In this document: positions 3,930 through 26,070 of the stretch, piece by piece
Numbering within the stretch: the stretch's first letter is position 1
Layout: the number at the start of each line of letters is the position of its first letter
DNA from: an uncultured Anaerolineae bacterium
GTDB lineage: Bacteria > Chloroflexota > Anaerolineae > VGOG01
Length of the DNA stretch: 64,000 nucleotides
Direction of reading: 5' to 3'
Assembly: GCA_964510205.1 (NCBI GenBank)
Contig: CAZEBW010000004.1
Location: forward strand, 3,638 to 67,637
The notes under the pieces: generated by a model
Database searches by the model: none
The model's input: only the letters and a program-made list of their open reading frames with translations
What the model was told of the DNA's origin: nothing
Translations under genes and position numbers: made by a program

Positions 3930-3930
<1 letters not shown>

Positions 3931-6478: not shown

Positions 6479-6516
6479 GCCCTAGAACTGAAACGCACAT
6501 CTCTCCAAATCGCTTT

Positions 6517-6545
6517 TTGCGTTGAATCCGACTATCGTGTATAAT
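6517..6545 (+). promoter_or_regulatory. Putative sigma-70 promoter for the Flp pilin gene
   Basis: TTGCGT (6517-6522), 17-nt spacer, TATAAT (6540-6545), about 40 nt upstream of the start codon. Confidence 0.4.
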
Positions 6546-6586
6546 AAGGCAGTGTGTCCTTTACCACCTGAAGAGGAGGTCAATAA

Positions 6587-6739
6587 GTGATACCATTTCT
6601 GTCACGTGAAGAAGGACAGGGGCTCATTGAGTATGCCCTGATCATCGTCTTGGTAGCCATAGTCGTCACTGCCATCTTGCTGTTGCTGTGGGACAAGATA
6701 TACGTCTTGCTGAACCAGTTTATCAACTTCATTAGCTGA
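6587..6739 (+). CDS. flp: Flp/Fap-family type IVb (Tad) pilin, 50 aa (absent from the ORF track, below its size cut-off)
   Basis: GTG start with a GAGGAGG RBS 7 nt upstream. Translation is VIPFLSREEGQGLIEYALIIVLVAIVVTAILLLLWDKIYVLLNQFINFIS. The G/LIEYAL motif plus a hydrophobic helix is the Flp signature. Confidence 0.7.
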   Translation: MIPFLSREEGQGLIEYALIIVLVAIVVTAILLLLWDKIYVLLNQFINFIS

Positions 6740-6923
6740 CTCGTCGTCTTCGTGCACTCGACCTGACATTTGCCGTGTTTTTTCTTGCTTCAGTGGATCC
6801 AGATTCTGAGCAGAGCGGACCTTCGCGCCATTCGGCTGCGTGCGCTCAGGCCCGTGCTGATCCGGCCGCAATGACAGGCATGGGGGCCGCCTCTGCTGGA
6901 AATCCTGGCAGGCCAGGGGAAAC

Positions 6924-7628: not shown

Positions 7629-7742
7629 GCAGTGATCTGAAACGGCTTGCCTCATGCTGGCGGCGGATGATAAATCGCCAGTTCCAGGGCGGGCTGAGGC
7701 CGATGGTAGGACGCAAAACCGATTAAGGAAAGGAGATGTCAA

Positions 7743-8288
7743 ATGCAGTTGATCATCCAGGGTAAGAACATTGACGTGACCGATCGCTTGGAGGAGTACA
7801 TTGAGAAGAAAGTGGGCAAGCTGGACCGCTATCTGCCCACCATAAGCGAGGCGCGGGTAGAGCTGGCTGTTGAGGACACCAAGAGCGCTAAGGATCGCCA
7901 GGTAGCGCAGTTGACCGTGCGGAGCAAGGGCACATTTTTGCGGGCCGAAGAGAGAACTGCTGATATGTTCTCCTCGATTGACGTTGTTACGGACAAGATG
8001 TACCGCCAGATCGTTCGCTACAAGGGCAAACGCTATGGCCGAGGTCGCGGGCCAGGTGAGATGCCGCCAGTGGAGGACTTCGCATTTGAAGAGGAAGAAG
8101 AATCGTCTCGCATCGTCAGAACCAAGCGTTTCCAGTTGGCTCCCATGGATGCAGAAGAGGCCATCGAGCAAATGGAGCTTCTGGGCCACGACTTCTTCCT
8201 GTTCTTCAATGTTTACAACAATGCCATAAACGTCGTCTATCGGCGTAAGGATGGCAACTACGGGCTGCTTGAGCCGGAGCTGGCGTAG
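7743..8288 (+). CDS. hpf: Ribosome hibernation promoting factor, long form
   Basis: MQLIIQGKNIDVTDRLEEYIEKKVGKLDRY N-terminal S30AE domain plus a C-terminal dimerisation domain. Confidence 0.9.
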   Translation: MQLIIQGKNIDVTDRLEEYIEKKVGKLDRYLPTISEARVELAVEDTKSAKDRQVAQLTVRSKGTFLRAEERTADMFSSIDVVTDKMYRQIVRYKGKRYGRGRGPGEMPPVEDFAFEEEEESSRIVRTKRFQLAPMDAEEAIEQMELLGHDFFLFFNVYNNAINVVYRRKDGNYGLLEPELA

Positions 8289-11400: not shown

Positions 11401-11430
11401 TTGACAAGATTAGAACATGTGTGCTATAAT
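11401..11430 (+). promoter_or_regulatory. Near-consensus sigma-70 promoter
   Basis: TTGACA (11401-11406), 18-nt spacer ending in TGc, TATAAT (11425-11430). A GAGGAGGGA RBS precedes ATG 11486. Confidence 0.55.
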
Positions 11431-11485: not shown

Positions 11486-11725
11486 ATGGGTTTGGATATT
11501 TGGTTCAAGGAAGACATTAGGAACATTCTATTGGGTGTGGAGTTGGCCAATGGGCATCTGGCCAGTCGCTACAGTGATGACGAAGTGCGGGCTTATCGTG
11601 AGGGGTTTAAGGCTGCTCTGGCAGCGACGGCGGTGAGTTTTGGGATCTATCAATTCGGACCGCGGGCGGAAGCGCATCGCATTGGGAGCCAAACTGCGCT
11701 CTCCACAATTGCAGAGCAGCCTTGA
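11486..11725 (+). CDS. Small hypothetical protein (79 aa)
   Basis: ORF with a strong RBS and promoter. No recognisable domain. Convergent with the 3' end of the island operon. Confidence 0.5.
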   Translation: MGLDIWFKEDIRNILLGVELANGHLASRYSDDEVRAYREGFKAALAATAVSFGIYQFGPRAEAHRIGSQTALSTIAEQP

Positions 11726-11840
11726 ACCCGGCTGATTGATTCTTAACCCCGATGCCATTCTCCACTGGGACGCCAGGCATGCTTTGTGCAAGGCGTGTCT
11801 GCTGCTGGTCTCGGTAGAGCGGTTGCGATGCCCCCACTTT

Positions 11841-13340
11841 TCATGGAAGCGGTGGCAGTAGTATCCTATTGATGGTTATGCCCCACTGGTCACTTCTTCG
11901 TTCAAGCCCTTCCATTAGTTGCTGGCATGCTGTGGCCTTGTTCGGCGGATCATGTACATCCTGTTGCCTGTATCCACATAACGCCTCATTCAGGAGCACG
12001 GCCATTTCCTGCACGATTTCTTTGTCCCAAATAGTCTTCATGTCGGCTTCGGTCAGTTTTTTCTTCTTGGTCTTCTTGTGGTTATTCTCACCAGATTCTC
12101 TAAAGAAGTGAGGTGCATGAACCGCTTTTTCCTTATTGACCTGGTAGTAAACTACTGGGGCAAGCTGCAAGACCCCATCTGCTAGTGCGACTTTCTGTTT
12201 GGGGCAACGGCATCTCAGCTCCATGGTCGGGATTACAGCTTGAATTTGGCTGTACAAGGGAAGCTGAAGAATACTTTGACCTTCTTCCAGCACCCTGATT
12301 TCGCGACTGTCTCCGATCACAGCAATCCTGTCGGGTGGGACGGTGAAGGTGAACGCCCTGTATCCAACGAGCACCAGAAGGACAAGCAAGAGTGGCAAGG
12401 CCGTACCCGCGGCAGTCAAGACAACGATGTGCAGTGAACTGCGCACGGAAAGCAGTATGCTCGCCAGCAGCATCAGTAGTACAATGACCACAAAGCCTGC
12501 CAACGCGCTGACAAAGGCGAGCACAGGGCTGGACAGTATTAGGTTGATGGCATCGCGAGCGTATGTGAGCAATGTCTCGAGTTGAATAGCAAGCGATGGT
12601 GGAGATTGCTCCGCCGCTCCGTCCTTCTCCTGCTCTGACGGCCTCATGCCTTGCGGACTGGCGTCTCCAGGTGGAAGGGATTCTTCGTCAATGTCCTCTG
12701 AGTTCATGGCTAGTCGTTCCGTCGTTTGCTCAGGCATACTCTCTTCACCCTCCTCTTGTTTTTGCTTCGCCTCTTGGCCTGACGGCTCCGTTTGTACGGG
12801 ACCAGCTCTTCCACGTCGAAGCGGTCCTCCGCCGGTATCTCCTGAATCCATGGCTACTTGTTGGTCTCGCAGGATCTTCCGGTATCGTGACTCGACTGTG
12901 CGCCTTAGGCGGCGGTCCATGTCCTGCAGCAGTTCCAGGCTGCGTGAACAGGCTTGACTTGCCTTGAGCCATTTGCCTTGGGCCTCGCACACCGTGGCCA
13001 ATCCAAAGAGGGCTACTGCTTGACTATGTTTGTCACTCAGAAAGAAGCGAGTGCTCTCTTGATACTTGTTGGCTGCCTCATCCAAGTGTTCCTGAGCGTG
13101 AAAGATAGCTGCGAGGTGAATAAGGGCTACCCCTTGAGCATATGAGTCATCCAACATGTCCAATTCGAGAGATCCTCTTGCTGATCTAATGCTTTGCTCA
13201 GCTATCGATTGGGCTGCTTTGTACCGGCCAGCTCGTCGCAGTTTGTCGGCCTCCTTGTTGAGCACGGTACCGCGATTAGTTCGTTCTCTTAGTTGGCGTA
13301 TGATCTGGTTGGCTTGTCGGTGGTAAGGATCGGATGTCAT
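11841..13340 (-). CDS. TPR-like N-domain / acidic linker / 2 TM / divergent SPFH (band-7)-like C-domain protein
   Basis: N-terminal helical-repeat region (AAQSIAEQS...LFGLATVCEAQGKWLKA), an E/S/P-rich linker and two hydrophobic helices. The C-terminal pattern (RIAVIG..REIRVLEEGQ...VVYYQV...WGITINRILLPP) is collinear with the SPFH fold. Start set at MTSDPY (ATG 13340). Confidence 0.55.
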   Translation of the reverse strand: MTSDPYHRQANQIIRQLRERTNRGTVLNKEADKLRRAGRYKAAQSIAEQSIRSARGSLELDMLDDSYAQGVALIHLAAIFHAQEHLDEAANKYQESTRFFLSDKHSQAVALFGLATVCEAQGKWLKASQACSRSLELLQDMDRRLRRTVESRYRKILRDQQVAMDSGDTGGGPLRRGRAGPVQTEPSGQEAKQKQEEGEESMPEQTTERLAMNSEDIDEESLPPGDASPQGMRPSEQEKDGAAEQSPPSLAIQLETLLTYARDAINLILSSPVLAFVSALAGFVVIVLLMLLASILLSVRSSLHIVVLTAAGTALPLLLVLLVLVGYRAFTFTVPPDRIAVIGDSREIRVLEEGQSILQLPLYSQIQAVIPTMELRCRCPKQKVALADGVLQLAPVVYYQVNKEKAVHAPHFFRESGENNHKKTKKKKLTEADMKTIWDKEIVQEMAVLLNEALCGYRQQDVHDPPNKATACQQLMEGLERRSDQWGITINRILLPPLP

Positions 13341-13419
13341 TGAAGTCCCCCCATAGAAGGAAAGCCCACCGGGATGCAGGAGAGTTGGGCCGGATAAACT
13401 AAGGTGTTCTGCGATATCG

Positions 13420-14727
13420 CTATGGGCTGCCAGGCGGCAATGCAATCGCTGATCTTATGGATTGCAGAGTGGCCATCACGTCGGAAGGCAGAAGGATCTT
13501 GGTCGCTGGATCGGAGGCCATTTTCTCCAGAGCTTCAATGAAACGCAAGGCTATGAATTGTGGAATCGGGATGTTCTTAGTCTCCATCTGACGGAAGCCT
13601 TCGGTGATGGCTATGATCATTCTAGTTTGAGCTTGTGCTCTGGCAACCTCAATCAGGTTATATACTTCAGCCTGTGCCTCGCCTTCAGTGATGAGGACTT
13701 GCTTGCGACTCTCCGCCATGCGCGCTTCCCAGTCTACTTGCCATTTCTTTTGCATTCCTTCCCTAATTTCCGGAGGCACCTCAATATTCAGCATCTGAAA
13801 GCTTATGATAGTGCCTCCCCAGCCTTCGGCTATCTTTCGCAGGGAATCTCGGACACGCTGCTTGATGTCGCTTTGAGGGAACGTGTTGGGATCCAGTGGG
13901 TCAAAGATATCATCCAAGTAACGTTTGCCAATCTCGTCGCGAAGCAGATTCTTGGCTACTTCGATAGTGGCGATTTCCCAGTCATAGCTATCGTAGGTAG
14001 CTTTGAGGACCGCCTCTCTAGAGAATGGATAGGGCTTCTCTGGGTTCCACACCTTGGCTGGATCCTGCGCGATGCGGAATAGAACGCTATAGTGGATGGT
14101 CACCGGTATGCCATCTTTGGTTGAGGCATTATCTAGCGTTCCTCTCCTGAACCGTTTCCGTGTGACGATGACCTTCCTGATACTTTCAAAAGGCTTGGTG
14201 CGCACTGCACCGGGCCCCTCAATGCGAGTGAATTTCCCCATCCGCTCGAAGACAACGGCTTGCTCGTTGCGTATTACGATCAAATTGGCTACCTTGAAGC
14301 CGGCGAGTGCGCCTTTGGACTTCACCTCGTCCACTTGGCCATCTTCAACGATGATGTAGCTTCCCAGGAATAGCTCTCCGGTGACAAAAGAGAGTAAATA
14401 CCGAAAGCAGTCCCACTGATTGCCGCCCCGGCTGACCAGTATGAGTTGCGAGGCCAGAAACAGGAGACTGCCTGTTAAGAATAGATAGACAGCCAGCCCC
14501 AATACTGCCCCCGTCAGGCCTCTCGTGACGAAGGAGAAGGTCAGAAACACCCCACTTGCAGTGAAGAATATCGCCAGCGCCACGCCCTTGCTCTGGCCCA
14601 TCCTGACAAGACACCCAAGGGAGACCACAGCGAGCCATACTAGGCCCCATTTGGGCTCGTGAACTACAGAGACTAAAATCAGTAGTGGAAGCAGGGCTAC
14701 GGACAACACAAGCAAGATCTTCTTCAT
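13420..14727 (-). CDS. SPFH/band-7 (stomatin/prohibitin-like) membrane protein
   Basis: Four N-terminal TM helices, then VIRNEQAVVFERMGKF...TKDGIPVTIHYSVLFRI...GWGGTIISFQMLNIEVP and a coiled-coil tail. AAGGAGAG RBS precedes ATG 14727. Confidence 0.75.
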   Translation of the reverse strand: MKKILLVLSVALLPLLILVSVVHEPKWGLVWLAVVSLGCLVRMGQSKGVALAIFFTASGVFLTFSFVTRGLTGAVLGLAVYLFLTGSLLFLASQLILVSRGGNQWDCFRYLLSFVTGELFLGSYIIVEDGQVDEVKSKGALAGFKVANLIVIRNEQAVVFERMGKFTRIEGPGAVRTKPFESIRKVIVTRKRFRRGTLDNASTKDGIPVTIHYSVLFRIAQDPAKVWNPEKPYPFSREAVLKATYDSYDWEIATIEVAKNLLRDEIGKRYLDDIFDPLDPNTFPQSDIKQRVRDSLRKIAEGWGGTIISFQMLNIEVPPEIREGMQKKWQVDWEARMAESRKQVLITEGEAQAEVYNLIEVARAQAQTRMIIAITEGFRQMETKNIPIPQFIALRFIEALEKMASDPATKILLPSDVMATLQSIRSAIALPPGSP

Positions 14728-14903
14728 AGCACAAGCTCTCCTTGTTTCTGTCAGCACTCTTAAGGTACGTGAGACTGCCGTCCAGTGCGTTCAACACGAG
14801 CTTATCTGACGGCGCCACAGGTATCACCCAGTTTCCATAGATCGAGGCAAAACCAAAAGGCCGCGGCTCGATATCGAAAACGTTTTGCAATGAGGGTGCT
14901 CAC

Positions 14904-16418
14904 TCAGCTCTGGGCGATCAAAATGGGGGAAGCCCAAGTCAAGTCATCCTTATTACGCATTGCCAGCTCTCGCCGGGCATCCAGCAGTGCCAGTTCAGGG
15001 CTGCCGTGCTGGAGCATAGAACGATAGAACGCCAGTGCCATTTCCTTGGCGCTCACTGCCGGCACTGACCACCTGTAGCCCAAAACAGACGGCACCCCTG
15101 ATTGGATAATTCCATCAGCGATACCCAGGTAGTCATCGTCCAGCAAATCAACCGGGCTGCCGGTACGAGTGCCCTCGCAGCACGTCAGGTGAAACAAACG
15201 GGTGTCAGAATCTTCCAACAGCCATCTCAGCTCATTTCCGGTCATTGGCTTTATATTCCCTGACCGGTTGCTGTCTTCCCAGAAGAACAATCTGCTCTGT
15301 TCCGGAGACCCCTCGTGAAAGACTCCGTGACCAACATAATGCACGATGTGATGCTTACACCCACGGAGCATTTCTTGCACTGCACTGTATGTAGCTGCTT
15401 CGGTTCTGACATGAGTCAAATCCAACCAGTTCAGTGGCGACAGCAAATCCACCAACTCTTCTCCGATTTTGTCAATCAGATCAATGCGTGGCTCAGTGTT
15501 GGACACGAGCAGTAGAACACGCAGGTTCTCGCCTGAACTGGCGAGACGTCGTATGAGTTCAGCAGAGATGGGTTCACGCCTCGTCACTACGCCTCGAATT
15601 TGGCGGACCATTGGATGGAGCAGTGTAAGGTAATCACCAGCCTCATCGGAAAAGATGAACTCCAGTGGCAATCCTGCCAGATCTCGGGTGGATTCAAACA
15701 CGAGGTGCAAGTATTGGTTCATTTGCGTCCTACCGAGTGCTCGGTGATACCCGTTGAGTACCGCAGAGTGCTGTTCGAACAGCAGGCGGTATAGCTCCCG
15801 TCCCACGTCTTTGATCAGAAAGCGGCGGTCTGCTGTGCTCATCATGCGTTCGCTTCCCCAGCGTGCAAAACGTGGAGCGTCGAGGCTTAGTGGATTGACA
15901 GAGGTGTATGTGAAGCGGATGTTGCCACGGCCCCGCACAAGAAGTCGCTGCCCTGGCTCTAGCGAGATTGTAATTTCGCACTCTTGGCTCGGCTCAAAGA
16001 CCGGCAATTGCCATTTCAATGACCTACTGATCACGCTATCCATCACTTTAACCACATCTTCTATCATGGTCTTTGGGAGGTACTCGGCTACAAGTCGCCG
16101 TCCAGTTGCATCAGGTTCCAGGGCGCGCCTCATCGTGTCAGGGGTACCATAGCCGGTGATAATGACAATCGGGAGCCCAGGGAATCGTCGTTTAAGCTCA
16201 GCAGCTAGATCAAGGCCTTCTAGGTTGCCTTCATCTGTCTCGTCCAAGCGCATGTCAAGTAGGGCTGCGTCGAAATGCTCTCGGTCAGACAAATCCAGGG
16301 CTCGCGCAACACTGGCAGCCGTTTTGGTTGCGTAGCCCTCGTCAATCAAGAGTTGTGAAAGGGTCACTCGCCAGTCAAACAAATCATCTACGATAAGCAC
16401 CTGGATTTGTTTAGTCAT
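14904..16418 (-). CDS. Response-regulator receiver fused to CHAT (caspase-like) peptidase domain
   Basis: REC features: VLIVDD...LLDMRLDE...ITGYG...LPK. CHAT features: HIVHYVGHG (His), LFHLTCCEG (Cys), SVLGYRWSV. The ATG overlaps the stop of the upstream kinase by 8 nt. Confidence 0.85.
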   Translation of the reverse strand: MTKQIQVLIVDDLFDWRVTLSQLLIDEGYATKTAASVARALDLSDREHFDAALLDMRLDETDEGNLEGLDLAAELKRRFPGLPIVIITGYGTPDTMRRALEPDATGRRLVAEYLPKTMIEDVVKVMDSVISRSLKWQLPVFEPSQECEITISLEPGQRLLVRGRGNIRFTYTSVNPLSLDAPRFARWGSERMMSTADRRFLIKDVGRELYRLLFEQHSAVLNGYHRALGRTQMNQYLHLVFESTRDLAGLPLEFIFSDEAGDYLTLLHPMVRQIRGVVTRREPISAELIRRLASSGENLRVLLLVSNTEPRIDLIDKIGEELVDLLSPLNWLDLTHVRTEAATYSAVQEMLRGCKHHIVHYVGHGVFHEGSPEQSRLFFWEDSNRSGNIKPMTGNELRWLLEDSDTRLFHLTCCEGTRTGSPVDLLDDDYLGIADGIIQSGVPSVLGYRWSVPAVSAKEMALAFYRSMLQHGSPELALLDARRELAMRNKDDLTWASPILIAQS

Positions 16419-17205
16419 GGCTGCTATCCGTGGGAGTTTCTATGGCTTTGATCACAGGGAGTGTGATCGCTATCGTCGTGCCGTGGCCAATCTCAGTATG
16501 TTTTACACTAATCTCTCCACCAAACCTGGCAAGTATCAAATGCGCTAACCAGAGACCCAGGCCCTTGTTGGTCCCGGTTGACGGAATCGGACCCTGAAAA
16601 AGATCGGCAAGAATGAGTTGCGGTATCCCTGTTCCGTTATCTGCAATCTCTACTCGCACTGTGTTGTCCGCGTCCACGTACTGGGTATGGATGTCAATAT
16701 GTCCGGGTTTTTTGCTTGTTGCTTGGATCGAGTTTTCGAGCACCGCCCGGAAAACCTCCGCGAGCAAGTGGCTATCAGCACGCACGGGAGGGACATCCTC
16801 TGGAAAATCAAAACTCACCCGTACTGTCTTGGAAGTGTGGCTAGCAGAAAGTTCTTCCCAGACCTCATACAGCAGTGAGTTTACGTCTAAGGGCATAGGC
16901 GGCTCACTCGGCTCTCTGAGTACTTCGACGGCGGCACTTAATTCGCTCAAACTGCTAATGGTCTTTTCTATGGCTGTGACCAGGTCGAGGGCGGCTCTAT
17001 CGTTGCTATTGATGTATTCCTTAAGACGACCGACTCGAACTCCCAGCAACCCAGTCAAGTTGGAGAGCTGGTGCAGTAATGCAGCAGAAGCCATCCCCAG
17101 TGCAATGAGGCTGGCCTCCTCCCCGTGGCTACGGTTAGGATGTGCACTTTCTTGCGGTAGGGGTGGATTTGGTCTCTGACTTTCCCGGTCATTTGGTGGA
17201 CTCAT
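16411..17205 (-). CDS. Sensor-less cytoplasmic histidine kinase (DHp + HATPase_c only)
   Basis: H-box-like AALLHQLSNLTG. ATPase N/G boxes VLENSIQAT, IADNGTGIP, GLGLWLAHLI. No TM or sensor domain. Confidence 0.8.
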   Translation of the reverse strand: MSPPNDRESQRPNPPLPQESAHPNRSHGEEASLIALGMASAALLHQLSNLTGLLGVRVGRLKEYINSNDRAALDLVTAIEKTISSLSELSAAVEVLREPSEPPMPLDVNSLLYEVWEELSASHTSKTVRVSFDFPEDVPPVRADSHLLAEVFRAVLENSIQATSKKPGHIDIHTQYVDADNTVRVEIADNGTGIPQLILADLFQGPIPSTGTNKGLGLWLAHLILARFGGEISVKHTEIGHGTTIAITLPVIKAIETPTDSSHD

Positions 17206-17241
17206 TTGTCGGATTCTCCCAAGCGCGGCGCGTCCTTCAGT

Positions 17242-18717
17242 TCACTCCTGATGAATCAAGATAGGCGACAACCAGGTTGGATCGTTTCTGTCCATAGCGG
17301 CCAGCTCGCGCCTTGCGCTCCAGAGGGCGAACTCCGGCCCCCCTTGCTCCAATAAGGACTGGTAGAAAGCCAACGCCAGCCGACGGGCTCCATCATCTGA
17401 CACAGGCCAGCGGAAGCCCAGCACCGAGGGTGCGCCGGCCTGCGCGACAGCGTCGGCCAGCCCAAGGAAATCGTCATCCAGCAAAGCAGCCTGAGCGCCG
17501 CTGGCTGTGCCATAGCAACTGCTCATGTACACCAGACGTGCTTCCGAGCGCCTGAGTAGCATCTTTAGTTCGGTTGCTTTCATCGGCATGACGCCACCTT
17601 GCTTATTCTCCTGGGCCCAGAAGTATAGGCTGCTATCTTCAGGGGACTCGGTCCTGTACGAGCCATGTCCTGCGTAATGTACAATGTCGTAACTGGGCTT
17701 CCCCAACTCTGATCTTACGCGCTCATACGTGGCGCGCTCCGTGGGGATGAGTTTAACACTGACAGGGATGCAGTCCTGGCTCTTTAAGTACTCGTACAGT
17801 GCCTGCGCCTCGGCATCTACGCCGTCTATTGGAGGCTGTGTGTTAGAGGCGATAATCAGAATTCGCAATTCCTGAGTCAGTGCCAGCAGCGAAGGGGAAA
17901 TCAGGCTGCGTTTCGGGGTAGCATTGTATAGAAAACGGGCGAGGGGGTGTTGAAGTACCAGGTACTCTGGAGGATCATCCGAGCGCATAAATTCCAATGG
18001 TAGTCTGAGAAATTCCCTGGGCGTCTCAAAAAGCATTGAAAACGACTGGCTCTTGGCGCGCGCTTCCACATAGGCTTTTTCGGCTTCAGGGTGCTCAGTA
18101 AATATGTCACGCCACAGACTGTGGCCGATCTCCCCAACCTGGAAACGCAAATTGCTCACGTCTCTTCTGGCGAGTTCTGTCCGCCTTGCATAGCGTTCGA
18201 GTGCCACACGCAACACTTTCCACGAGCGCAAGGAACAGACGTGGCGACCGCGCGCCCTGATCACCAGAGGCTGTCCGGCTGTGAGTGATAGAGATAGCTG
18301 GGTAGCATCACCTGTCTTCTCAAACCTCGGCTTGGTTGCCTCCTGGCGTGCTTTCGCGATAGTCTCCAGAACTTGTTCAGCCACATCCGGGGTTTTTTCG
18401 ATGAAGTCAACTACTCCGAGATATCGAATCGCGCGTACAATTTGCTTGGTTCTCGGGTAGCGTGTGAGCAGGATGACGCGAACCCGCGGATTGAGGGCGC
18501 GGAATGCCATCGCCAGGCTCAATCCGCTTTCGTCCTCTTCATCATCTCCGTGCAGGCGCACGTCAATGAGAGCAAAGTCGAACGGTTCTTGCGTGACAGC
18601 AACCAGGGCTTGTTCCTCGTTGGCCGCTGACCGGACGGTGTATCCTTCATCGGAAAGTCGCCCTGCTAACGTGGTACAGAAATCGGCATGGTCATCTACT
18701 ATCAGAATCTTGCACAT
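17242..18717 (-). CDS. Response-regulator receiver fused to CHAT (caspase-like) peptidase domain
   Basis: REC features: ILIVDD...LIDVRLHGDDEEDE...LLTRY...IEK. CHAT features: DIVHYAGHG (His), LVYMSSCYG (Cys), SVLGFRWPV. Start chosen at MCKILIVDD (ATG 18717, GAGGG RBS); upstream in-frame ATGs at 18732 and 18768 are possible. Confidence 0.85.
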   Translation of the reverse strand: MCKILIVDDHADFCTTLAGRLSDEGYTVRSAANEEQALVAVTQEPFDFALIDVRLHGDDEEDESGLSLAMAFRALNPRVRVILLTRYPRTKQIVRAIRYLGVVDFIEKTPDVAEQVLETIAKARQEATKPRFEKTGDATQLSLSLTAGQPLVIRARGRHVCSLRSWKVLRVALERYARRTELARRDVSNLRFQVGEIGHSLWRDIFTEHPEAEKAYVEARAKSQSFSMLFETPREFLRLPLEFMRSDDPPEYLVLQHPLARFLYNATPKRSLISPSLLALTQELRILIIASNTQPPIDGVDAEAQALYEYLKSQDCIPVSVKLIPTERATYERVRSELGKPSYDIVHYAGHGSYRTESPEDSSLYFWAQENKQGGVMPMKATELKMLLRRSEARLVYMSSCYGTASGAQAALLDDDFLGLADAVAQAGAPSVLGFRWPVSDDGARRLALAFYQSLLEQGGPEFALWSARRELAAMDRNDPTWLSPILIHQE

Positions 18718-18757
18718 TGCTACCCTCTTCATCAACTGTCTGATGGGACGCTCCGGG

Positions 18758-19639
18758 TCATCCAGCATTCCCCCAATTTGCCTGTATGTAACTCGTTGTC
18801 GCCTTTACGTCCAGGCTGCGAGTCGAATTGCCAATACGCACCCAGAACTTGTGAACATCGCCCGTCGCCAGGAACACCGGCTTTGGGCTTTTTTCAATCG
18901 CAACGATGCAGACGTGTTTACCATCTATGGGTTCGAAGCGTGTGCGAATGTATGGCATATATTCTAGACCCACATAGGTCTTGACAATATCCGTCAATGC
19001 CAATTGAAACCCATCGGTATTTGGCTTGCGCAGAGTTTGTAAGTCTTTTTCAATACCTAGCACCGTGCCATCGTCAGCGACGCCAATGAGTAGGGTCCCA
19101 CCCTTGCTGTTCAACATTCCTGTGATTGCCACGGCGATCGTTTCCTGCAGGCTCTTGTTAGTTGTGTTTTTCTTGAAATCCCAGCGGATACTGGACTTGA
19201 ATTCCACGTGGTCATTTTCACCTTGGGCAATCAAATTGAGTACCGAGCGTTCAAATGCGCGGTTCACGTACTCCGGCAGTTGGTCTACTTCAGATTTTTC
19301 CAGGAAGCCAAACGCTGGTGATACTCCCTCGCGATCAGGTTGAAGGACCTCCCTCACCATCCTGACGTTTGCATAGCCGGTCAAGATAATGATGGCCACA
19401 TGGGGGTCCTTCTCTCTGATCTCGCGCATAAGCAAGATGCCATCTTGGTTGTCCTCGTCGGCCTCGTCCAAGCGCACGTCCAGAACTGCGACGTGAAAAC
19501 GCTCGGCGTCCAACATTTGCAGAGCCTCAACTCTGCTGGATGCCGAGCGTACTTCATAGCCTTCGTCTGACAAAAGGCCCGACAATGTTGCGCACACGTC
19601 GGGCAGGTCATCTACTACGAGAACGCGACCTTTGTACAT
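18758..19639 (-). CDS. Response-regulator receiver fused to AlbA_2 (Schlafen-like, putative nucleic-acid-binding) domain
   Basis: REC features: VLVVDD...VLDVRLDEADEDN...LTGYA...LEK. C-terminal features: GENDHVEFKSS...MLNSKGGTLLIGVADDGTVLGI, matching the AlbA_2/divergent-AAA pattern. AGGAG RBS precedes ATG 19639. Confidence 0.75.
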   Translation of the reverse strand: MYKGRVLVVDDLPDVCATLSGLLSDEGYEVRSASSRVEALQMLDAERFHVAVLDVRLDEADEDNQDGILLMREIREKDPHVAIIILTGYANVRMVREVLQPDREGVSPAFGFLEKSEVDQLPEYVNRAFERSVLNLIAQGENDHVEFKSSIRWDFKKNTTNKSLQETIAVAITGMLNSKGGTLLIGVADDGTVLGIEKDLQTLRKPNTDGFQLALTDIVKTYVGLEYMPYIRTRFEPIDGKHVCIVAIEKSPKPVFLATGDVHKFWVRIGNSTRSLDVKATTSYIQANWGNAG

Positions 19640-19665
19640 GGCACTCCTGCCGATTGCATCTTGTC

Positions 19666-20067
19666 TTATCGTGCCAACACTTCCTGTACTATCTTGACCA
19701 ACTCTTCGGTCTGGGTTTTCGGGATATAGTTCGCTACAAGTCTCCGGCCCTGCGTATCTGGCTCCATTGCCCGTCTCATGGTATCCGGCGTGCCGTAGCC
19801 TGTGATCATTACGACTTCGGTAGTGGGCCAATGTTGTTTGATCTCATCCGCCAGGTCCAGCCCCTCGGTGTTACTCTCGTCCGTCTCGTCCAGGCGCATG
19901 TCCAGTACTGCCAGATCAAAATGGCTGGTTTTGAGCAACTCCAATGCCGCAGGCGAAGACTCGGCAACCTGGACATCGTATCCCGCGTCCTCCAACAAGC
20001 CACCGAGCGTCGTGCGCCAATCTAGCAGGTCATCTACCACCAGAATCTTCTGCCGTTTGTTTGTCAT
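19666..20067 (-). CDS. Stand-alone response-regulator receiver
   Basis: ILVVDD...VLDMRLDETDESN...ITGYG...IPK. Closest in sequence to the REC of the 14904-16418 protein. Shows an ATGA start/stop overlap with the upstream gene. Confidence 0.9.
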   Translation of the reverse strand: MTNKRQKILVVDDLLDWRTTLGGLLEDAGYDVQVAESSPAALELLKTSHFDLAVLDMRLDETDESNTEGLDLADEIKQHWPTTEVVMITGYGTPDTMRRAMEPDTQGRRLVANYIPKTQTEELVKIVQEVLAR

Positions 20068-20453
20068 TCTCTTACTCCTTCGTGCTTACCATGGCGATTA
20101 CGCGGCACCTGTGGAAACAGAATGATCTCCCTGACCTGCTCGAAGAGATCCTCGCTTCCGAAAGACTTGGCGAAGTAGCGCATGGCTCCCAACCGGTAGG
20201 CCGCAAGCGCCTCTTGGGTCGTGGGTTGTACTGTTGTTACGACCACCCGCTTATCAGAGTATTTCTCAGCGATGACTGCAAGCACGTCCAGGCGGCGGGA
20301 GCTTGCGATGACCAGGTCGAACTGATCCGCTTCGAGTTCAGCGAGTGCTGCCTTGGTGTCAGGCGCAACGACGATTTCAAACTTGTTGAGATCGCTCTTG
20401 GCGAACTCAATCCAGCGAGGTTCGTCGTCAATGATCAGAATGCGAGTTTTCAT
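20064..20453 (-). CDS. Atypical (pseudo-)receiver domain protein; phospho-acceptor Asp replaced by Ser
   Basis: ILIIDDE...FDLVIASSRR...VVVTT...FAKSF. The acidic pair, Thr and Lys are kept, but the D57-equivalent reads S. AGGAGG lies 7 nt upstream of ATG 20453. Confidence 0.7.
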   Translation of the reverse strand: MKTRILIIDDEPRWIEFAKSDLNKFEIVVAPDTKAALAELEADQFDLVIASSRRLDVLAVIAEKYSDKRVVVTTVQPTTQEALAAYRLGAMRYFAKSFGSEDLFEQVREIILFPQVPRNRHGKHEGVRE

Positions 20454-20455
20454 GA

Positions 20456-23400
20456 TCACACCTCCTTTCCCGTCCCCGGCGCTGGGATCTGAACCAGCAT
20501 TGTTGTTCCAGTGGGATCGGTCTCTTCTATTATAGCATCACCGCCAATACTTTGCAACATCAGTCGGCTGAGCCAGAGACCCAGACCTGCCCCTCCGCCT
20601 GGCTCCTTGGATGGGACTGGTTTGACGAAGAGACGTTGCTGGACTTGCAGTGGGATGCCCGGTCCTGTATCCTGAACCCGCACACAGATATTACTGTCGG
20701 TCAGACGACTGGTAACTGCTAACTGGCCACCCGCCTTCATTGCTCGGTAGGCATTGTCAACCAAGTTGTAGAAGACCTCAGCGATCTGACCGATCGGGGC
20801 CCGAATCTGCGGCAGCGATTGATCCAGGTCTAGGGTATGTTCGATCGTTGATCGAATGGGATCCGTTCGCCACTGTTCTCTCACTTTACCCACCACGTCA
20901 CTCAGCACTGCGTTAATGTCCACATCCTGATCCTCGACCTCTCGCAGCGGTTCTTGAATGCGCGCGATGATATCCGACGTATAGCGGGCGTTACGTTCGA
21001 TGATGTCAAGGATCTCTGCAATCGTATCATTCGACATATCAACGCGCTTCCGCAGGCGCGTCACGTTGGGAACGATGATGTTGAAGGTATTATTGACACG
21101 ATGTTGTAAAGCTGCGATGGCCGTGCCCAGTGTGGCCAAGCGCTTGGTCGCGATGACTTCACTGCGTGCCTCCTCATATAACCGGGCATTCTCAAGGGCA
21201 ATGGCTGCCTGGTTGGCCATAGAGGAGATGACCTGCAAGTCCTGTTCATCGTAGGCCTGCTCTCTTTCCCAGTCGTAGATAGCGATCACGCCCAGAACCC
21301 TATTCTCCAGAACCATCGGGACACCTATCCAAGATTTGGCGACACGCCCGATGAACTCTTGATGTCCGGGCTGTCCATACCACGCTTTAGATTCCACTTG
21401 GGTGCGATGCAGGATTGGCTTCTTGGTAAGGATGACTTCTTCGGTCTTACCCCGCTTCTCCATATCAGCCTTGCGGGGATCGTAATGCACCTGCTCACCG
21501 TGCTCCGTTGCCAGACCGAAGCGGATCATCCCTGTTTCCTCGTCATACAGCGCGATGTACATGTCCTGTGCGCCGGTCAACTCCCTGGCCTGCTCGTAGA
21601 TTAGCTCCAGAATCTCATCTTGCTTCAGACGAATACCGGAGGTTAGTGCCTGTCCTACCTCATTCAGTGCCGCCAACGCCTGAACGCGCCGTGCGAGCTG
21701 CTGGTTGATCTCGTAGTAAAGCGTTGCATTATCCAACGCGATTGCCGCTTGGTTGGCCACAGAGGAGATGACCTGCAAGTCCTGTTCATCGTAGGCCTGC
21801 TCTCTTTCCCAGTCATAAATGGCGATCATACCCAGTACCTTCTCACCTGTGACCATGGGAACGCCCAAGTAAGAAGGCTGAACACGCCCGATGAACTCTT
21901 GATGTCCGGGCTGTCCATACCACGCTTTAGATTCCACTTGGGTGCGATGCAGGATTGGCTTCTTGGTAAGGATGACTTCTTCGGTCTTACCCCGCTTCTC
22001 CATATCAGCCTTGCGGGGATCGTAATGCACCTGCTCACCGTGCTCCGTTGCCAGACCGAAGCGGATCATCCCTGTTTCCTCGTCATACAGCGCGATGTAC
22101 ATGTCCTGTGCGCCGGTCAACTCCCTGGCCTGCTCGTAGATTAGCTCCAGAATCTCATCTTGCTTCAGACGAATACCGGAGGTTAGTGTCTGTCCCACCT
22201 CGTTCACTGCCTGTATAGCTTTATACAAGCGTGCGCTTTTAATAGCAACCGCTGCTGCCCCAGCTAGGGCCTCAACCAGACGCATGTGATCGTCTGTAAA
22301 GGCTCCGATTTGGGTACTCTCCAGATTGAGCGTTCCAATCACTCTGTCACGGTGTATCAACGGTGTTGTGAGTTCGGATTGTACTTCCTCAAACCACTCC
22401 TTGTAGTACGGATCGCTTTTGATATCGTTGCAAAGATATGTCTTTCTACTCAAGGCAACGTGTCCGTTGATGCTCGTCTCGTCTAGGGGTAGTCTCGTGA
22501 GGGTTCGCGTCGGCGTCTCATCCCTCTTGTTTCTCGCCCCAAATCGCAGTTCACGTGTCCGCTCGTCCAGCAACCAAATACTCGTATACTTGGCTGGCGT
22601 CAGCCTGGCCGCTTGCTCTGCGATTTGCTCCAGCAGATCCTCTAGGGAAGCAGTGCCAATGAGCGCGTATAGGTTCTGAAGAGCTCTGATATCATCAATT
22701 CGCTCTTGTAGGCTAGTCTGAGCCTCTTCGTACACACGGGCGTTATAGATAGCTGTCGCCGCTTGATTAGCGAACAGCTCGATAGCCCCCCGTTGCTCAG
22801 GAGTGAAGGGTTGTCGGCTCCGGTAATTGACGAACATAGCGCCCACGGTTTCGCCTGCTGCTTCGAGGGGGACGGCGGCTGACGATAGGATTCCCTCGCG
22901 CACTACAAAGCGCTTTTCCGGGCGCTCAGGGCGCTCTACGGTGAATGGGCCGGTGAGCAGGGTATCCGTCTGAGTATCGGGAGAGTAGAGGGGCTCTCCA
23001 CCCTCGACCACTTTCACAACGACATCATCCTTGAATATTTCGTCCTTGACAACTGTGGGGTCTCGGCGCTCTCCTTCCAAGATAGGTGGCATGATGTAAC
23101 GGTCATCCGCCTCAACGTACTGGTACACATCCACGAGATCGGCACCCAATACACTCCTGGCACTTCGCGCCACCTGACGCAATACCTCTCTCAACCCCTG
23201 TGCCGAAAGCTCAGCCGAGAGTATTCGTCCCCCAATCTGGTGCAGCCTCTGCAAGACTGCAGCCCGGCTGGTTGCCTGCTCAAGAAGTTGAGCATTGTGT
23301 ACAGCCACGGCGGACTGGCTGGCCACCGCCTCTAACAGCATCTGATCGTGCTCGTCAAAGCCGCTCAGCCCGTCCATATCAGCAGAGATCACCCCAATAA

Positions 23401-24193
23401 CCTCGTCTTGCAAGATTATGGGCGCCAGCACCATTGAGCGCTCGACGATGTCTGACGACAAACCGGGGACAAACTGAGGGTGCTTGACCGCATCCGGGAC
23501 GAGTTCTGATTGCTTGGTTTGGGCTACCCACCCGGCCAACCCGACCCCTTGGGCGAACTGCTGTCGTGCGATGCCTGCTGACGAGGCAGCTTCCAACGCT
23601 AGGTCACCGCTCTTATCCACTAGAAAAACGCTGATGTGCTTGCAATCCAGCACTCTTTCTGCGGCTTGCATAATGCGTGCGAAAAGATCGGCACGGCGCA
23701 ATTCGGAACTGATCAAGAGGCTCACTGCGTTCAGGGTCGCCAGATCCTGAATTCGACGCTGCGTGGCAGCCACTTGAGCGGAAGAACTCTCAATCAGCGC
23801 CTTCTCGAAATCAGTGAAATCCCTTGCCTCACGGGTATAAACGTCAAGCACACCAACGATTTTCCTTTTTACTCGTAGTGGTACCACCATAGCCGACTTC
23901 AGTCCCATAGCGGTGGTTTCTGGTTTGTACTTCCAGCGAGCATCGGTGTCAACGTCTGTCACGACGATTGCCTGTTCAGTCGCAAAAACGTCAGACGCGA
24001 CACTGGGCTCATCCAGGCGCAGAAACGCATCGCGAACGTATTCCTCTGACAACTCTGTCGCTGCAGCGATCCGGAGGGTTTCCCCCGTTTCATCGGCAAG
24101 CCAGATACAGGCCGGCAGTCCCAGAGTCTGGCTTATGGTCTCCACCACGGGTTGAAAGAACTGCTTTTTATCAAGTTCTTGAGAGGGGATCAT
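20456..24193 (-). CDS. Multi-GAF cytoplasmic histidine kinase (HisKA_2-like H-box + HATPase_c)
   Basis: 1245 aa with about five to six GAF-like modules judged by periodic motifs (e.g. VPL...VIGVL...). The C-terminus has AALQHRVNNTFN (an HRVxN-type H-box) plus LVDNAYRAM, VQDTGPGIP, GLGLWLSRLM. No TM segment. AAGGAGAG RBS. Confidence 0.9.
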   Translation of the reverse strand: MIPSQELDKKQFFQPVVETISQTLGLPACIWLADETGETLRIAAATELSEEYVRDAFLRLDEPSVASDVFATEQAIVVTDVDTDARWKYKPETTAMGLKSAMVVPLRVKRKIVGVLDVYTREARDFTDFEKALIESSSAQVAATQRRIQDLATLNAVSLLISSELRRADLFARIMQAAERVLDCKHISVFLVDKSGDLALEAASSAGIARQQFAQGVGLAGWVAQTKQSELVPDAVKHPQFVPGLSSDIVERSMVLAPIILQDEVIGVISADMDGLSGFDEHDQMLLEAVASQSAVAVHNAQLLEQATSRAAVLQRLHQIGGRILSAELSAQGLREVLRQVARSARSVLGADLVDVYQYVEADDRYIMPPILEGERRDPTVVKDEIFKDDVVVKVVEGGEPLYSPDTQTDTLLTGPFTVERPERPEKRFVVREGILSSAAVPLEAAGETVGAMFVNYRSRQPFTPEQRGAIELFANQAATAIYNARVYEEAQTSLQERIDDIRALQNLYALIGTASLEDLLEQIAEQAARLTPAKYTSIWLLDERTRELRFGARNKRDETPTRTLTRLPLDETSINGHVALSRKTYLCNDIKSDPYYKEWFEEVQSELTTPLIHRDRVIGTLNLESTQIGAFTDDHMRLVEALAGAAAVAIKSARLYKAIQAVNEVGQTLTSGIRLKQDEILELIYEQARELTGAQDMYIALYDEETGMIRFGLATEHGEQVHYDPRKADMEKRGKTEEVILTKKPILHRTQVESKAWYGQPGHQEFIGRVQPSYLGVPMVTGEKVLGMIAIYDWEREQAYDEQDLQVISSVANQAAIALDNATLYYEINQQLARRVQALAALNEVGQALTSGIRLKQDEILELIYEQARELTGAQDMYIALYDEETGMIRFGLATEHGEQVHYDPRKADMEKRGKTEEVILTKKPILHRTQVESKAWYGQPGHQEFIGRVAKSWIGVPMVLENRVLGVIAIYDWEREQAYDEQDLQVISSMANQAAIALENARLYEEARSEVIATKRLATLGTAIAALQHRVNNTFNIIVPNVTRLRKRVDMSNDTIAEILDIIERNARYTSDIIARIQEPLREVEDQDVDINAVLSDVVGKVREQWRTDPIRSTIEHTLDLDQSLPQIRAPIGQIAEVFYNLVDNAYRAMKAGGQLAVTSRLTDSNICVRVQDTGPGIPLQVQQRLFVKPVPSKEPGGGAGLGLWLSRLMLQSIGGDAIIEETDPTGTTMLVQIPAPGTGKEV
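21211..22200. repeat. In-frame 540-bp tandem duplication (one GAF module) inside the kinase gene
   Basis: 21342-21648 is identical to 21882-22188 (307/307 by eye). 21221-21274 is identical to 21761-21814. The roughly 65 bp between the two blocks are strongly diverged. Confidence 0.9.
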
Positions 24194-24228
24194 GGGTCAC
24201 TCTCCTTGTCATCTGTAAATGGGCAGAT

Positions 24229-25569
24229 TCAATTATGAGGTTGGTGTCTCCAGACTTCCAATGACTCCCTATATCCCGCTTCCGAAAATGCTAACCCCTT
24301 CTCCCTCAGCATCATAGCGGTGAGAAGGTGAGGTAATCCTTTCTTCTTTTCCAGGAAGACGATTTGTGGGCCGGAAAGCGTACGCCTACCATTCTTCTTC
24401 AGGAATTGCATGAGCTGGCGACGTCCGCGCTCAACGGTCTTTAAGAAACGCTGTGCCTCGGTTGAGAAATAGGATTCCAGTTTCTCCTCGTCCTCCGGCG
24501 CCGCTCGCGAAGCGTTGCGCACTGTTTGGGAAATGCAATCTATCAGTGTGGGTAGAAACCCCCTGGTTTCGATGCCCAGAACAATCTGCCGCGTTACGAC
24601 ACCTCGAATCAATAGCTTAATGAGACGCTCTCGCCCATTCTTACCTGGAGGTGGAGCGCCATCTGCGACTAGGAAATACAGCGCCTTTAGATAATCTGCC
24701 ATCACATGTTCGCTGGCAGTGATCAACGATTCTGGCAGGTCAGGTGCGCGAACGAGACTATGTATGGTGTCTGTGATCGGTTGGTAACTACTTATCTCAA
24801 ACACTGATTGAGCATCTTGCAGGATCATTGCCACGCGCTCAGTGCCAATCACCGTTTCGAAGAAAGGCTCCGTCATCGGTTGGAGCCTTTGGGTCTTAGT
24901 GTCTATCTCGGTGCTGACAAAGAGTGAATTGGCGAATTCAACGAACCGACCGCACTGGCAAGGCGGCCGACAATCGGGGCCGCAGCCAAAGACCGCGCCT
25001 CGATCAAAGAACATCTCAGTATTGGGCCCGCATTTACGATAGCGAACTACCCCTTCAATGCCATTTCCTTGTTTCCAGAGGTTGTCCTTGACTCCCAGAC
25101 CTATGATCTGCTCTTCAGGCATCCCGATACTCCGCCAAGCTTGATGAGCCTCTACATCCTCGTCAAACGCATGCTTTGAAATCTTACCCCCGGCGAAATA
25201 AGTGACCCATATGTTGTCTGGCTTGATTCTCAGGTTTGAGGTCATGAACTCCCACATTTGCTGGATAACAGTTGCCTTGCTGAGAGCATTAAAGGAAAAA
25301 GCGGCGGGCATTTCAAACAAGCTTAGGTGCACATTGTCGGTTCCAACGGTGTCAATGTCGAAATATCTGAAGCACTTTTGCACCAGTGCATACTTATGCC
25401 CGGCACGCTTGCCCATCTGATCAAGAGCCTTTTCAAATTGCGGTAATCCAGCACTCATTACGAACGACATAGGAATAGAGGGATGCAACAGCGAGGCACT
25501 AGGCAGAACGGAGAATCCTTTGCCCTGGTAATAATCGAGGAACGTTTGGCTAATGGCTGGGGATCGCAT
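24229..25569 (-). CDS. Alanyl-tRNA synthetase catalytic-core paralog (aminoacylation + tRNA-recognition domains only; no editing or C-Ala domains)
   Basis: 446 aa, collinear with roughly the first 450 residues of bacterial AlaRS. Matching blocks: FLDYYQGKGF, VMSAGLPQF (vs FTNAGMNQF), QKCFRYFDIDTVG (vs QRCVR..NDLENVG), LFEMPAAFSF (vs FFEMLGNFSF), KCGPNTEMFFD (vs GPCGPCTEIFYD), ETVIGTERV (vs DTGMGLERI), YFLVADGAPPPGKNGRE (vs AFLIADGVMPSNENRGY). Confidence 0.8.
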   Translation of the reverse strand: MRSPAISQTFLDYYQGKGFSVLPSASLLHPSIPMSFVMSAGLPQFEKALDQMGKRAGHKYALVQKCFRYFDIDTVGTDNVHLSLFEMPAAFSFNALSKATVIQQMWEFMTSNLRIKPDNIWVTYFAGGKISKHAFDEDVEAHQAWRSIGMPEEQIIGLGVKDNLWKQGNGIEGVVRYRKCGPNTEMFFDRGAVFGCGPDCRPPCQCGRFVEFANSLFVSTEIDTKTQRLQPMTEPFFETVIGTERVAMILQDAQSVFEISSYQPITDTIHSLVRAPDLPESLITASEHVMADYLKALYFLVADGAPPPGKNGRERLIKLLIRGVVTRQIVLGIETRGFLPTLIDCISQTVRNASRAAPEDEEKLESYFSTEAQRFLKTVERGRRQLMQFLKKNGRRTLSGPQIVFLEKKKGLPHLLTAMMLREKGLAFSEAGYRESLEVWRHQPHN

Positions 25570-25621
25570 TTTCTAGCTCCAAATCACGCGATACACCGAA
25601 CGTTATTGTAGATGCATGAAT

Positions 25622-25650
25622 ATTATATCAAACCTGTCCTTAAATGTCAA
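25622..25650 (-). promoter_or_regulatory. Perfect consensus sigma-70 promoter for the island operon
   Basis: The minus strand reads TTGACA (25650-25645), an exact 17-nt spacer, then TATAAT (25627-25622), set in an AT-rich gap. About 50 nt of 5'UTR with a GGAG RBS precedes ATG 25569. Confidence 0.65.
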
Positions 25651-25704: not shown

Positions 25705-26070
25705 TCACACATTCGGGTGATGGCACTTCTTCCCAGTCGAAAATATCTCTAGCGAAGGGGCATCATATCGAGGCCCTCCTTCGAAGTCCCTAACGAACCG
25801 GTAAAACTCGTCAATGAAGCTGACTAATTCATCAGTATGCTCACTGATCGCCTTGACATCAGGGGAGATGTTCTCCTTGAGTTCCCTCTTGAACTTTTCA
25901 TCCTTCTCCTCAAGAGCAGCCCAATCCCAAGCCCCGTCAAGGTACTTGCGAATCTCCCCTAGCACATGATCTCGTGCGAGTGTGAGATCAGATGGGCAAT
26001 CTTTTGCCTTTAATCTACGATAATCTAATTCCATTTCCCTGCAAAGGGCTGGCGCATGGTCTCTGTCCAT
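25705..26070 (-). CDS. Hypothetical protein; possibly the C-terminal part of a frameshifted lipoprotein gene
   Basis: 121-aa ORF. Its frame is open upstream to 26124 and it overlaps the 26025-26249 ORF. Confidence 0.4.
   Translation of the reverse strand: MDRDHAPALCREMELDYRRLKAKDCPSDLTLARDHVLGEIRKYLDGAWDWAALEEKDEKFKRELKENISPDVKAISEHTDELVSFIDEFYRFVRDFEGGPRYDAPSLEIFSTGKKCHHPNV

Follow-up and report, generated by a model that had tools for sequence, protein, structure and literature searches.

The two-component Detocs system protects bacteria against phages and consists of the kinase DtcA, the free receiver DtcB, for which a role as a buffer of stray phosphate is proposed, and the receiver-PNP effector DtcC (Rousset et al., bioRxiv 10.1101/2023.01.24.525353). 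In multicellular bacteria, conflict systems with EAD and TCAD adaptors and with caspase, CHAT, and TIR effectors have been described (Kaur et al. 2020, PMC7159879; 2021, PMC8195603); no histidine kinase domains were reported among the vWA-associated effectors (Kaur et al. 2020, PMC7159879), and the text of both papers makes no mention of alanyl-tRNA synthetase (AlaRS). AcmF, an aminoacyl transferase in the biosynthesis of ascamycin that resembles a truncated AlaRS (PMC12945691), was the only characterized truncated AlaRS-like enzyme that we found in the literature searched. Here we analyze a ten-gene operon (g1 to g10) in a 64,000-nucleotide stretch, hereafter the window, of contig CAZEBW010000004.1 from an uncultured Anaerolineae bacterium. 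The operon joins an AlaRS-like protein to a multi-GAF histidine kinase, receiver-fused effectors, and membrane proteins, and had been proposed from the sequence as a candidate undescribed system.

We find that this system is best described as one of the Detocs-like, two-component conflict or cell-death kind with a new AlaRS-derived input, and we put at about 60% the probability that the operon is a member of a conserved AlaRS-core/GAF-kinase cassette that works as a Detocs-like relay with a likely abortive infection or cell-death output. Like Detocs, it has a kinase (g2), a stand-alone receiver (g4), and receiver-effectors (g5, g6, and g8); the receiver-fused effectors are enzymes rather than transcription factors, and they are swapped in both systems. 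PNP-type effectors also occur in relatives of the operon, fused to the receiver in locus L071 (REC-Nuc_deoxyrib_tr-PNP, REC being the receiver domain) and as a Nuc_deoxyrib_tr-PNP protein beside a separate receiver on the contig that encodes protein P0243. In contrast, the Detocs kinase carries TPRs where the AlaRS-like module and a GAF array are found here, and a pseudo-receiver, several parallel effectors, a second kinase, and SPFH/TPR partners are additional to the Detocs plan; the window effectors are CHAT and AlbA_2 proteins, with no PNP in the window. In comparisons with PADLOC models, PDC-M60B (2e-6) and PDC-M60C (4e-5), neither of which is confirmed as Detocs, matched only weakly and at the receivers, and nothing matched at the kinases.

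With the systems of Kaur et al., the cassette shares CHAT, caspase, TIR, TCAD9, EAD7, EAD8, and EAD11 and a bias toward filamentous or multicellular bacteria. Those systems are, however, built on STAND, vWA-MoxR, or other NTPases, whereas the window operon contains no NTPase and EAD/TCAD domains are seen here only on the receiver-effectors of relatives. No combination of an AlaRS-like protein, a GAF kinase, and REC-effectors was found in the accessible full texts, a search that did not take in Burroughs and Aravind 2020 (J Bacteriol 202:e00365-20). Within the texts searched, the original prediction, that no described system is of this kind, holds for the combination, but two-component control of immune effectors is not unprecedented, because Detocs has been described.

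Organization and co-inheritance of the operon

The ten open reading frames (ORFs) all lie on the minus strand and span positions 11841-25569 of the window. They are preceded by a sigma-70-type promoter (25622-25650, minus strand) that matches TTGACA-17-TATAAT at 12 of 12 consensus positions and has a TG upstream that makes an extended -10 element, the ATG of g1 following about 50 nt downstream; by our own estimate, about 0.005 such perfect promoters would be expected by chance in 31 kb of sequence read on two strands. Toward the 5' side, g1 and g2 are separated by a 35-nt gap, and g2/g3 and g3/g4 overlap in GTGA and ATGA, respectively. Gaps of 26 nt (g4/g5), 40 nt (g5/g6, counted from the g6 start at 18717), and 36 nt (g6/g7) follow in the middle of the operon, and the 3' side has an 8-nt overlap (g7/g8) and gaps of 176 nt (g8/g9) and 79 nt (g9/g10). 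Further promoter-like sites are present on the minus strand at 20557-20529 and 13646-13619. The GC content of the operon is 0.533, compared with 0.60-0.61 in both flanks, and in 16 of 18 loci the system was lower in GC than its upstream flank. The layout that had been read from the sequence, ten co-directional genes with these junctions behind a perfect consensus promoter in a lower-GC island, therefore agrees with our coordinates, spacings, and composition.

Taking one genome per species, we found 64 loci (numbered L), mostly in Anaerolineae and other Chloroflexota. The remainder came from Phormidium, Spirulina, Leptolyngbyaceae, Saprospiraceae, Thiothrix, Thiofilum, Thiolinea, Methylococcaceae, and a few others, and we take nearly all of these host taxa to be filamentous. 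Neighbors were counted by ORF calling and phmmer searches with the window domains. A multi-GAF protein, usually a GAF kinase, came next after the AlaRS-like gene in 35 of the 43 loci with at least 1.5 kb of downstream sequence, a GAF protein lay upstream of it in seven loci, and 31 of the 38 loci that extend to both sides of it had one on one side or the other; loci without an adjoining GAF protein were fragmentary, frameshifted, or very distant matches. Where at least 6 kb of downstream sequence was available, a kinase domain was found in 27/32 loci and a receiver likewise in 27/32. The order AlaRS-like, GAF kinase, pseudo-REC, REC, REC-AlbA_2, REC-CHAT is repeated in five further loci (L004, L006, L007, L067, and L068), one of which (L007) additionally has the short kinase and a second REC-CHAT protein.

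The first two genes also occur as one protein. The 1718-aa fusion P0250, present on six contigs, combines an AlaRS-like core with four GAF domains and HATPase_c, and is followed downstream by pseudo-REC, REC, REC-TCAD9, and REC-CHAT. P0243 and P0244 fuse two AlaRS-like cores to GAF and HATPase_c, L030/P0253 joins an AlaRS-like core to GAFs, and P0242 consists of two AlaRS-like cores alone. On this genomic evidence, g1 and g2 form a functional pair. Adjacency is thus not unique to this genome, as a check of gene-neighborhood conservation had been proposed to establish: a core of AlaRS-like protein, GAF kinase, and REC spans phyla and is a single protein in several metagenomic lineages. Profile searches and the recurring gene order together support the overall interpretation of the locus as a candidate system. 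Of the whole operon, the unit that is inherited together proved to be the core along with effectors that vary; SPFH/TPR genes accompany it in only about 20% of loci.

A distinct family of AlaRS-like proteins

The first gene, g1 (24229-25569, minus strand), encodes a 446-aa protein that matches Pfam tRNA-synt_2c (5e-70) over profile positions 2-426 of 552 and comprises the aminoacylation and tRNA-recognition domains only, without the editing domain or the C-Ala domain. Because these two domains are missing and the protein scores 224 bits against the alaS equivalog TIGR00344 (cut-off 457), g1 is not canonical alaS. An AF2 model of g1 (pLDDT 85) aligned with the AlaRS catalytic fragments 1riq, 3hxu, and 5knn at TM scores of 0.77-0.78. 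In one database, 609 proteins matched g1 at E<1e-10, the best 120 being nearly all of about 445 aa, and an exhaustive profile search resolved an AlaRS-like family that falls into about 57 clusters at 50% identity. Its members scored 938-267 bits in the profile search, and canonical AlaRS, at about 880 aa, started near 265 bits; stand-alone members have 380-505 aa, most of them about 430-470 aa. By these sequence measures, the AlaRS-like proteins are a distinct family, separate from canonical AlaRS.

We surveyed residues in 43 full-length members from several phyla aligned to Escherichia coli AlaRS, whose numbering is used here. R69, F90, M92, W170, E183, E209, N212, G239, E241, and R242 are retained in 43/43 members. 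In all 43, too, D235 is replaced by Glu and G237 by Val, and A70-G71-G72-K73 are deleted; V214 is Leu in 41. Position 237 was anchored by the E. coli entries 3hxu and 3hxz (G237A), which are identical except there. A cluster of four cysteines, Cys196-x3-Cys200-x3-Cys204-x-Cys206 (residues 196-206 of g1), is present in 40-42 of the 43 members at positions where AlaRS has G/G/E/G, and may be a metal or redox site. Every signature residue is kept in both halves of the tandem AlaRS-like proteins, and the retained and changed residues alike are under strong purifying selection. As a side observation, the position of E. coli C181 is Asn in most family members. We take D235, G237, and V214 to line the alanine site of AlaRS and K73 to touch the 3' end of the tRNA. 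Since the ATP and catalytic residues are retained while the pocket is changed and the K73 loop lost, the g1 core probably still binds ATP, with a ligand pocket predicted to be smaller and different and an altered acceptor-end site.

We infer a link of g1 to tRNA or to a small molecule. GCN2 is the eukaryotic eIF2-alpha kinase with a histidyl-tRNA synthetase (HisRS)-like regulatory domain. On this textbook basis, the likeness is that a synthetase-derived domain serves as the input of a kinase, directly so in the fused AlaRS-like-GAF-kinase proteins. The two differ in that the domain is derived from HisRS there and from AlaRS here, that GCN2 is a Ser/Thr kinase and g2 a histidine kinase, that catalytic residues are kept here, and that the output here consists of proteases and other effectors instead of translation control. 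Tentatively, and with more doubt than confidence, we suggest that the g1 module, a catalytically altered synthetase core, plays in bacteria the part of the HisRS-like domain of GCN2. It would read tRNA or aminoacylation status and directly gate a histidine kinase, whose phosphorylation would switch on caspase-like proteases and Schlafen-type, TIR, or PNP effectors. In multicellular bacteria, a disturbance of translation, for example by a phage, would in this way be coupled to suicide of the cell; g1 would then possibly be metal- or redox-sensitive through its four-cysteine cluster.

Alternatively, the AlaRS-like protein might be an enzyme that makes a signal (an adenylate, an Ap4A-type nucleotide, or the product of an AcmF-like aminoacyl transfer), which the GAF array would read. 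GAF domains are small-molecule binders. Such an enzyme would account for the class II catalytic and ATP residues being invariant in 43/43 members and in both tandem halves, and it would suit a kinase whose GAF domains bind small molecules. AcmF, moreover, is likewise reduced to an N-terminal AlaRS part and shows the Asp-to-Glu change seen here. AcmF is nevertheless an imperfect guide: its Asn-to-Gln change, its loss of most ATP-binding residues, and its biosynthetic cluster are absent here, the AlaRS-like family keeping N212, R69, E209, and R242, adding G237V, the K73-loop deletion, and the four-cysteine cluster, and standing in the context of kinases and receivers, that is, of a phosphorelay. 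A generator fused to its own sensor would also have less need of a diffusible messenger, and G237V, V214L, and D235E shrink the amino-acid site. We therefore regard a signal-making g1 as possible and about as doubtful as the GCN2-like proposal. Either way, the invariant D235E and G237V, V214L, the loss of the K73 loop, and the four-cysteine cluster pose a sharp biochemical question, namely the ligand or product of g1.

Kinases, dedicated receivers, and swappable effectors

The second gene, g2 (20456-24193, minus strand), encodes a soluble histidine kinase of 1245 aa in which Pfam recognizes six GAF domains and HATPase_c and whose H-box reads AALQHRVNN. Within it lies a tandem duplication (21186-22181, minus strand) of 540 bp, corresponding to one GAF unit, in which 300 nt are 100% identical between 21342-21641 and 21882-22181. 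Duplication in the recent past, gene conversion, or an artifact of the assembly could each account for it. We rejected a cyanobacteriochrome-type bilin-binding GAF kinase as an identity for g2, the sole Cys of the GAF array (residue 183) lying outside a bilin-type Cys-His motif. The other kinase, g7 (16411-17205, minus strand), has 264 aa and no sensor domain; it carries the H-box AALLHQLSN and HATPase_c, its only Pfam match, and has a homologue at the matching position in L007.

Five receiver proteins are encoded between and after the kinase genes. g3 (20064-20459, minus strand), which probably starts at the ATG at 20453, is a pseudo-receiver with a weak Response_reg match in which the phospho-acceptor Asp is replaced by Ser; its motif DLVIASS also occurs in seven other loci (L007, L010, L011, L019, L031, L045, and L056). 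g4 (19666-20067, minus strand) is a stand-alone receiver (Response_reg, Pfam) with the Asp intact. g5 (18758-19639, minus strand) combines a receiver with SLFN_AlbA_2 (Schlafen/AlbA_2; 1.7e-18) and has a counterpart in L004, L006, L007, L067, and L068. g6 (17242-18717, minus strand) and g8 (14904-16418, minus strand) are receiver-CHAT proteases that match Response_reg and CHAT at 1.5e-33 and 4.4e-27, respectively, with CHAT bit scores of 117 and 95.7 against a Pfam cut-off of 24. The catalytic dyad is intact in both, as His368-Gly/Cys418 in g6 (numbered on the 508-aa ORF that starts at 18768) and His364/Cys414 in g8, and a His-Gly/Cys dyad was intact in 13/13 proteins checked, namely these two and 11 homologues. 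In regulated use of a clan CD His/Cys protease as an effector, g6 and g8 resemble the TPR-CHAT protein of type III-E CRISPR (Craspase) and HetF; in Craspase an RNA-guided complex activates the protease, whereas here an N-terminal phospho-receiver would do so.

The acidic pocket, phospho-Asp, Thr/Ser, and Lys are all present in the receivers of g4, g5, g6, and g8, and with g2 and g7 these proteins carry the sequence features of a two-component phosphorelay. Directly after the phospho-Asp, 13 of the 13 cognate receivers that we aligned, drawn from Chloroflexota, Cyanobacteria, and Saprospiraceae (the four window receivers and those of L004-L037), share the insertion D-[ILM]-R-L-x-D-E-x3-N-x2-G-L. 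The inserted stretch is acidic and about 10 residues long. Searches of Protein Data Bank sequences with g5 and g6 returned receiver domains only, and among PADLOC models these receivers scored best against those of PDC-M60B/C and against a SduA model.

In relatives, other effectors fill the slot occupied by CHAT and AlbA_2 in the window. L010, L033, and L069 have REC-TCAD9, TCAD9 being an APH-like kinase, whereas the cyanobacterial loci have caspase C14 and those of Saprospiraceae CHAT-REC. We also found REC-TIR (ThsB hidden Markov model [HMM], 2.9e-19) in L016 and L018, REC-EAD11 in L022, REC-Nuc_deoxyrib_tr-EAD8 in L028, and REC-EAD7-CHAT in L067, in addition to the PNP fusion of L071. Against defense HMMs, the effectors of relatives matched CBASS PN and TIR effector models with E values of roughly 1e-12 to 1e-14, the PNP effector matching the CBASS PN model at 1e-12 and PDC-M60C at 1.6e-12. 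Judged by their sequences, the downstream receivers are a dedicated subfamily fused to swappable effectors, set on a constant core. Because conflict-type effectors (TIR, caspase, PNP, TCAD9, and EAD adaptors) occupy the same slot elsewhere, the suggestion that the operon is a defense or cell-fate module is strengthened.

Proposed mechanism and competing explanations

From these data we infer the direction of signaling, the trigger, the roles of g3, g4, g9, and g10, and an immune or cell-death function, and the mechanism that we propose is as follows. g1 would be the input module of the cytoplasmic multi-GAF kinase g2, sensing or making a ligand and gating the kinase; the most plausible trigger would be a change in tRNA, aminoacylation, or adenylate, or in metal or redox state, read by g1. 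On this trigger, g2 would autophosphorylate and pass phosphate to the dedicated receivers. The free receiver g4 is a probable phosphate sink, analogous to DtcB, and the pseudo-receiver g3 a probable modulator of the relay. Output would run through g5, by its AlbA_2/Schlafen-type nucleic-acid-binding domain, and through the caspase-like CHAT proteases g6 and g8, the short kinase g7 being paired with g8; g9 and g10 may be scaffolds or protease substrates. In filamentous bacteria, the likely outcome would be abortive infection or a programmed death of the cell.

Several observations weigh against a conflict or cell-death function, and most of them would instead fit a two-component pathway that serves the physiology or development of filamentous bacteria, in which the AlaRS-like module reports amino-acid or translation status, as in GCN2 or the stringent response, and the CHAT proteases remodel cells (filament fragmentation, necridia-type death, HetF-like division control, or starvation proteolysis). 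The distribution is almost wholly in filamentous lineages, CHAT and caspase proteins can be developmental in such taxa, and g8 has a weak match to HetF. The window locus is chromosomal and lies among housekeeping genes, with no integrase or mobile-element genes in the window flanks. PADLOC gave weak receiver- or CHAT-level matches for the ten window proteins and no listed defense system, and the family was not found in the phage and plasmid collections searched, where the only matches were canonical alaS sequences with no more than 31% identity. The SPFH/TPR genes, present in a minority of loci and on either side of the core, likewise do not favor the proposed relay. Furthermore, tRNA and Rfam scans of the window were empty and scanning 36 loci for tRNAs revealed no tRNA-Ala linked to them, so that a system-encoded tRNA partner is not supported.

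On the other side, the TIR, PNP, TCAD9, and EAD-adaptor effectors found elsewhere are typical of conflict systems and match defense HMMs, and one locus of the family (L069) lies beside AAA_16 and TCAD9 proteins. A fixed sensor with swapped effectors, a consistently lower GC content, and a patchy spread across phyla would all be unusual for a core developmental pathway. These features make a developmental pathway unlikely in our view. That the ten genes are merely unrelated neighbors, with a synthetase pseudo-paralog, ordinary two-component genes, and membrane proteins side by side, is very improbable, for although the 176-nt and 79-nt gaps and the sites at 20557-20529 and 13646-13619 permit internal transcription starts and most loci lack the SPFH/TPR genes, the order is repeated across genomes and phyla, the first two genes are also one protein, the SPFH-SPFH-TPR block stays attached though moved from the 5' to the 3' side, and chance is already contradicted for g1-g8.

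If the Detocs-like relay with an AlaRS-derived input is correct, a synthetase core, fused in some lineages, would be a new class of sensory input for histidine kinases and a prokaryotic parallel of GCN2. Detocs-type immune phosphorelays would then extend to caspase-like, TIR, Schlafen-like, and kinase-like effectors in filamentous bacteria, which has a bearing on how regulated cell death arose in multicellular lineages. CHAT proteases gated by receivers would, in addition, be proteases that can be switched and might serve as tools.

Membrane proteins g9 and g10

g9 (13420-14727, minus strand) is an SPFH/Band_7 protein (Band_7, 8e-18; 65.5 bits against a cut-off of 23.6) with about four N-terminal transmembrane segments, and homologous genes accompany the system in L003-L006, L008, L022, L062, and L068. 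g10 (11841-13340, minus strand) has TPRs (TPR_12, 6.7e-10), an acidic linker, two transmembrane segments within residues 263-337, and a divergent SPFH-like C terminus; the other eight proteins of the operon are soluble. g10 is a single open frame, of which the public annotation (P0121) covers the last 298 aa only. When its C-terminal 180 aa were scanned alone, Band_7 was the sole match (E 0.0013; profile positions 2-140) at 19.3 bits, below the cut-off of 23.6. An hhalign comparison with the SPFH profile gave a probability of 2.7%, which is not significant, and a single-sequence AF2 model of the C terminus was unusable (pLDDT 45). Because the Band_7 score is below the cut-off and neither hhalign nor AF2 helped, an SPFH-like C terminus is plausible for g10 and goes no further than that. 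The domain assignments made from the sequence were accordingly all recovered in Pfam profile searches except that at the g10 C terminus, where SPFH is weakly supported. A homologue search with g10 returned g10 alone, TPR and low-complexity words having probably saturated the candidate list.

Two SPFH genes and one TPR gene lie directly upstream of the AlaRS-like gene and on the same strand in six loci (L004, L005, L006, L022, L062, and L068); L003 has one SPFH and one TPR gene upstream, and L008 an SPFH gene downstream. In the window the block is instead at the 3' end, with the TPR part and the second SPFH-like part merged as g10. Since the block stays beside the core though it switches between the 5' and 3' sides, it appears to be linked to the core despite rearrangement. 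The SPFH/TPR membrane partners are a lineage-specific accessory of a sub-clade.

Neighboring genes and additional observations

The genes that flank the operon encode glycosyltransferases, a low-molecular-weight phosphatase, a ComF-like protein, a CHU_C protein, a Mur ligase, and a GH99 enzyme. Just upstream of the promoter, a 121-aa ORF (25705-26070, minus strand) with no Pfam match was dropped as a component, as it has no counterpart in other loci. A second lower-GC stretch (49277-56140) was set aside; it holds ordinary envelope genes, encoding an LPG_synthase_TM protein, two type I phosphodiesterases, and an LVIVD-repeat protein.

Among the related loci, the fused AlaRS-like-GAF-kinase operon of L069 adjoins genes for TCAD9 and AAA_16 proteins of 1223 and 1630 aa, respectively (1-4755), which look like a neighboring conflict system. 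In L071, a 644-aa protein with a weak S1 (RNA-binding) match and HATPase_c and a 1492-aa REC-multi-GAF protein lie upstream of the double-AlaRS-like kinase (1592-7997), and a Band_7 gene is found at the locus edge. At the 3' end of the cassette, five loci have a protein of 219-221 aa, alike by size and position (L003, 17503-18165; L005, 18532-19191; L006, 13063-13728; L022, 15661-16320; L068, 15022-15687). The L003 and L068 copies had no Pfam match, and in L003, L005, and L022 the protein comes after two receiver proteins without assigned output domains.

In the window, the 3' limit of the operon is position 11841, and a convergent 79-aa ORF beyond it (11486-11725, plus strand) marks the boundary. 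This ORF has a perfect promoter of its own at 11401-11430 (TTGACA, 18 nt, TATAAT, with TG), the ribosome-binding site GGAGGG, and, at 11717-11734, a hairpin.

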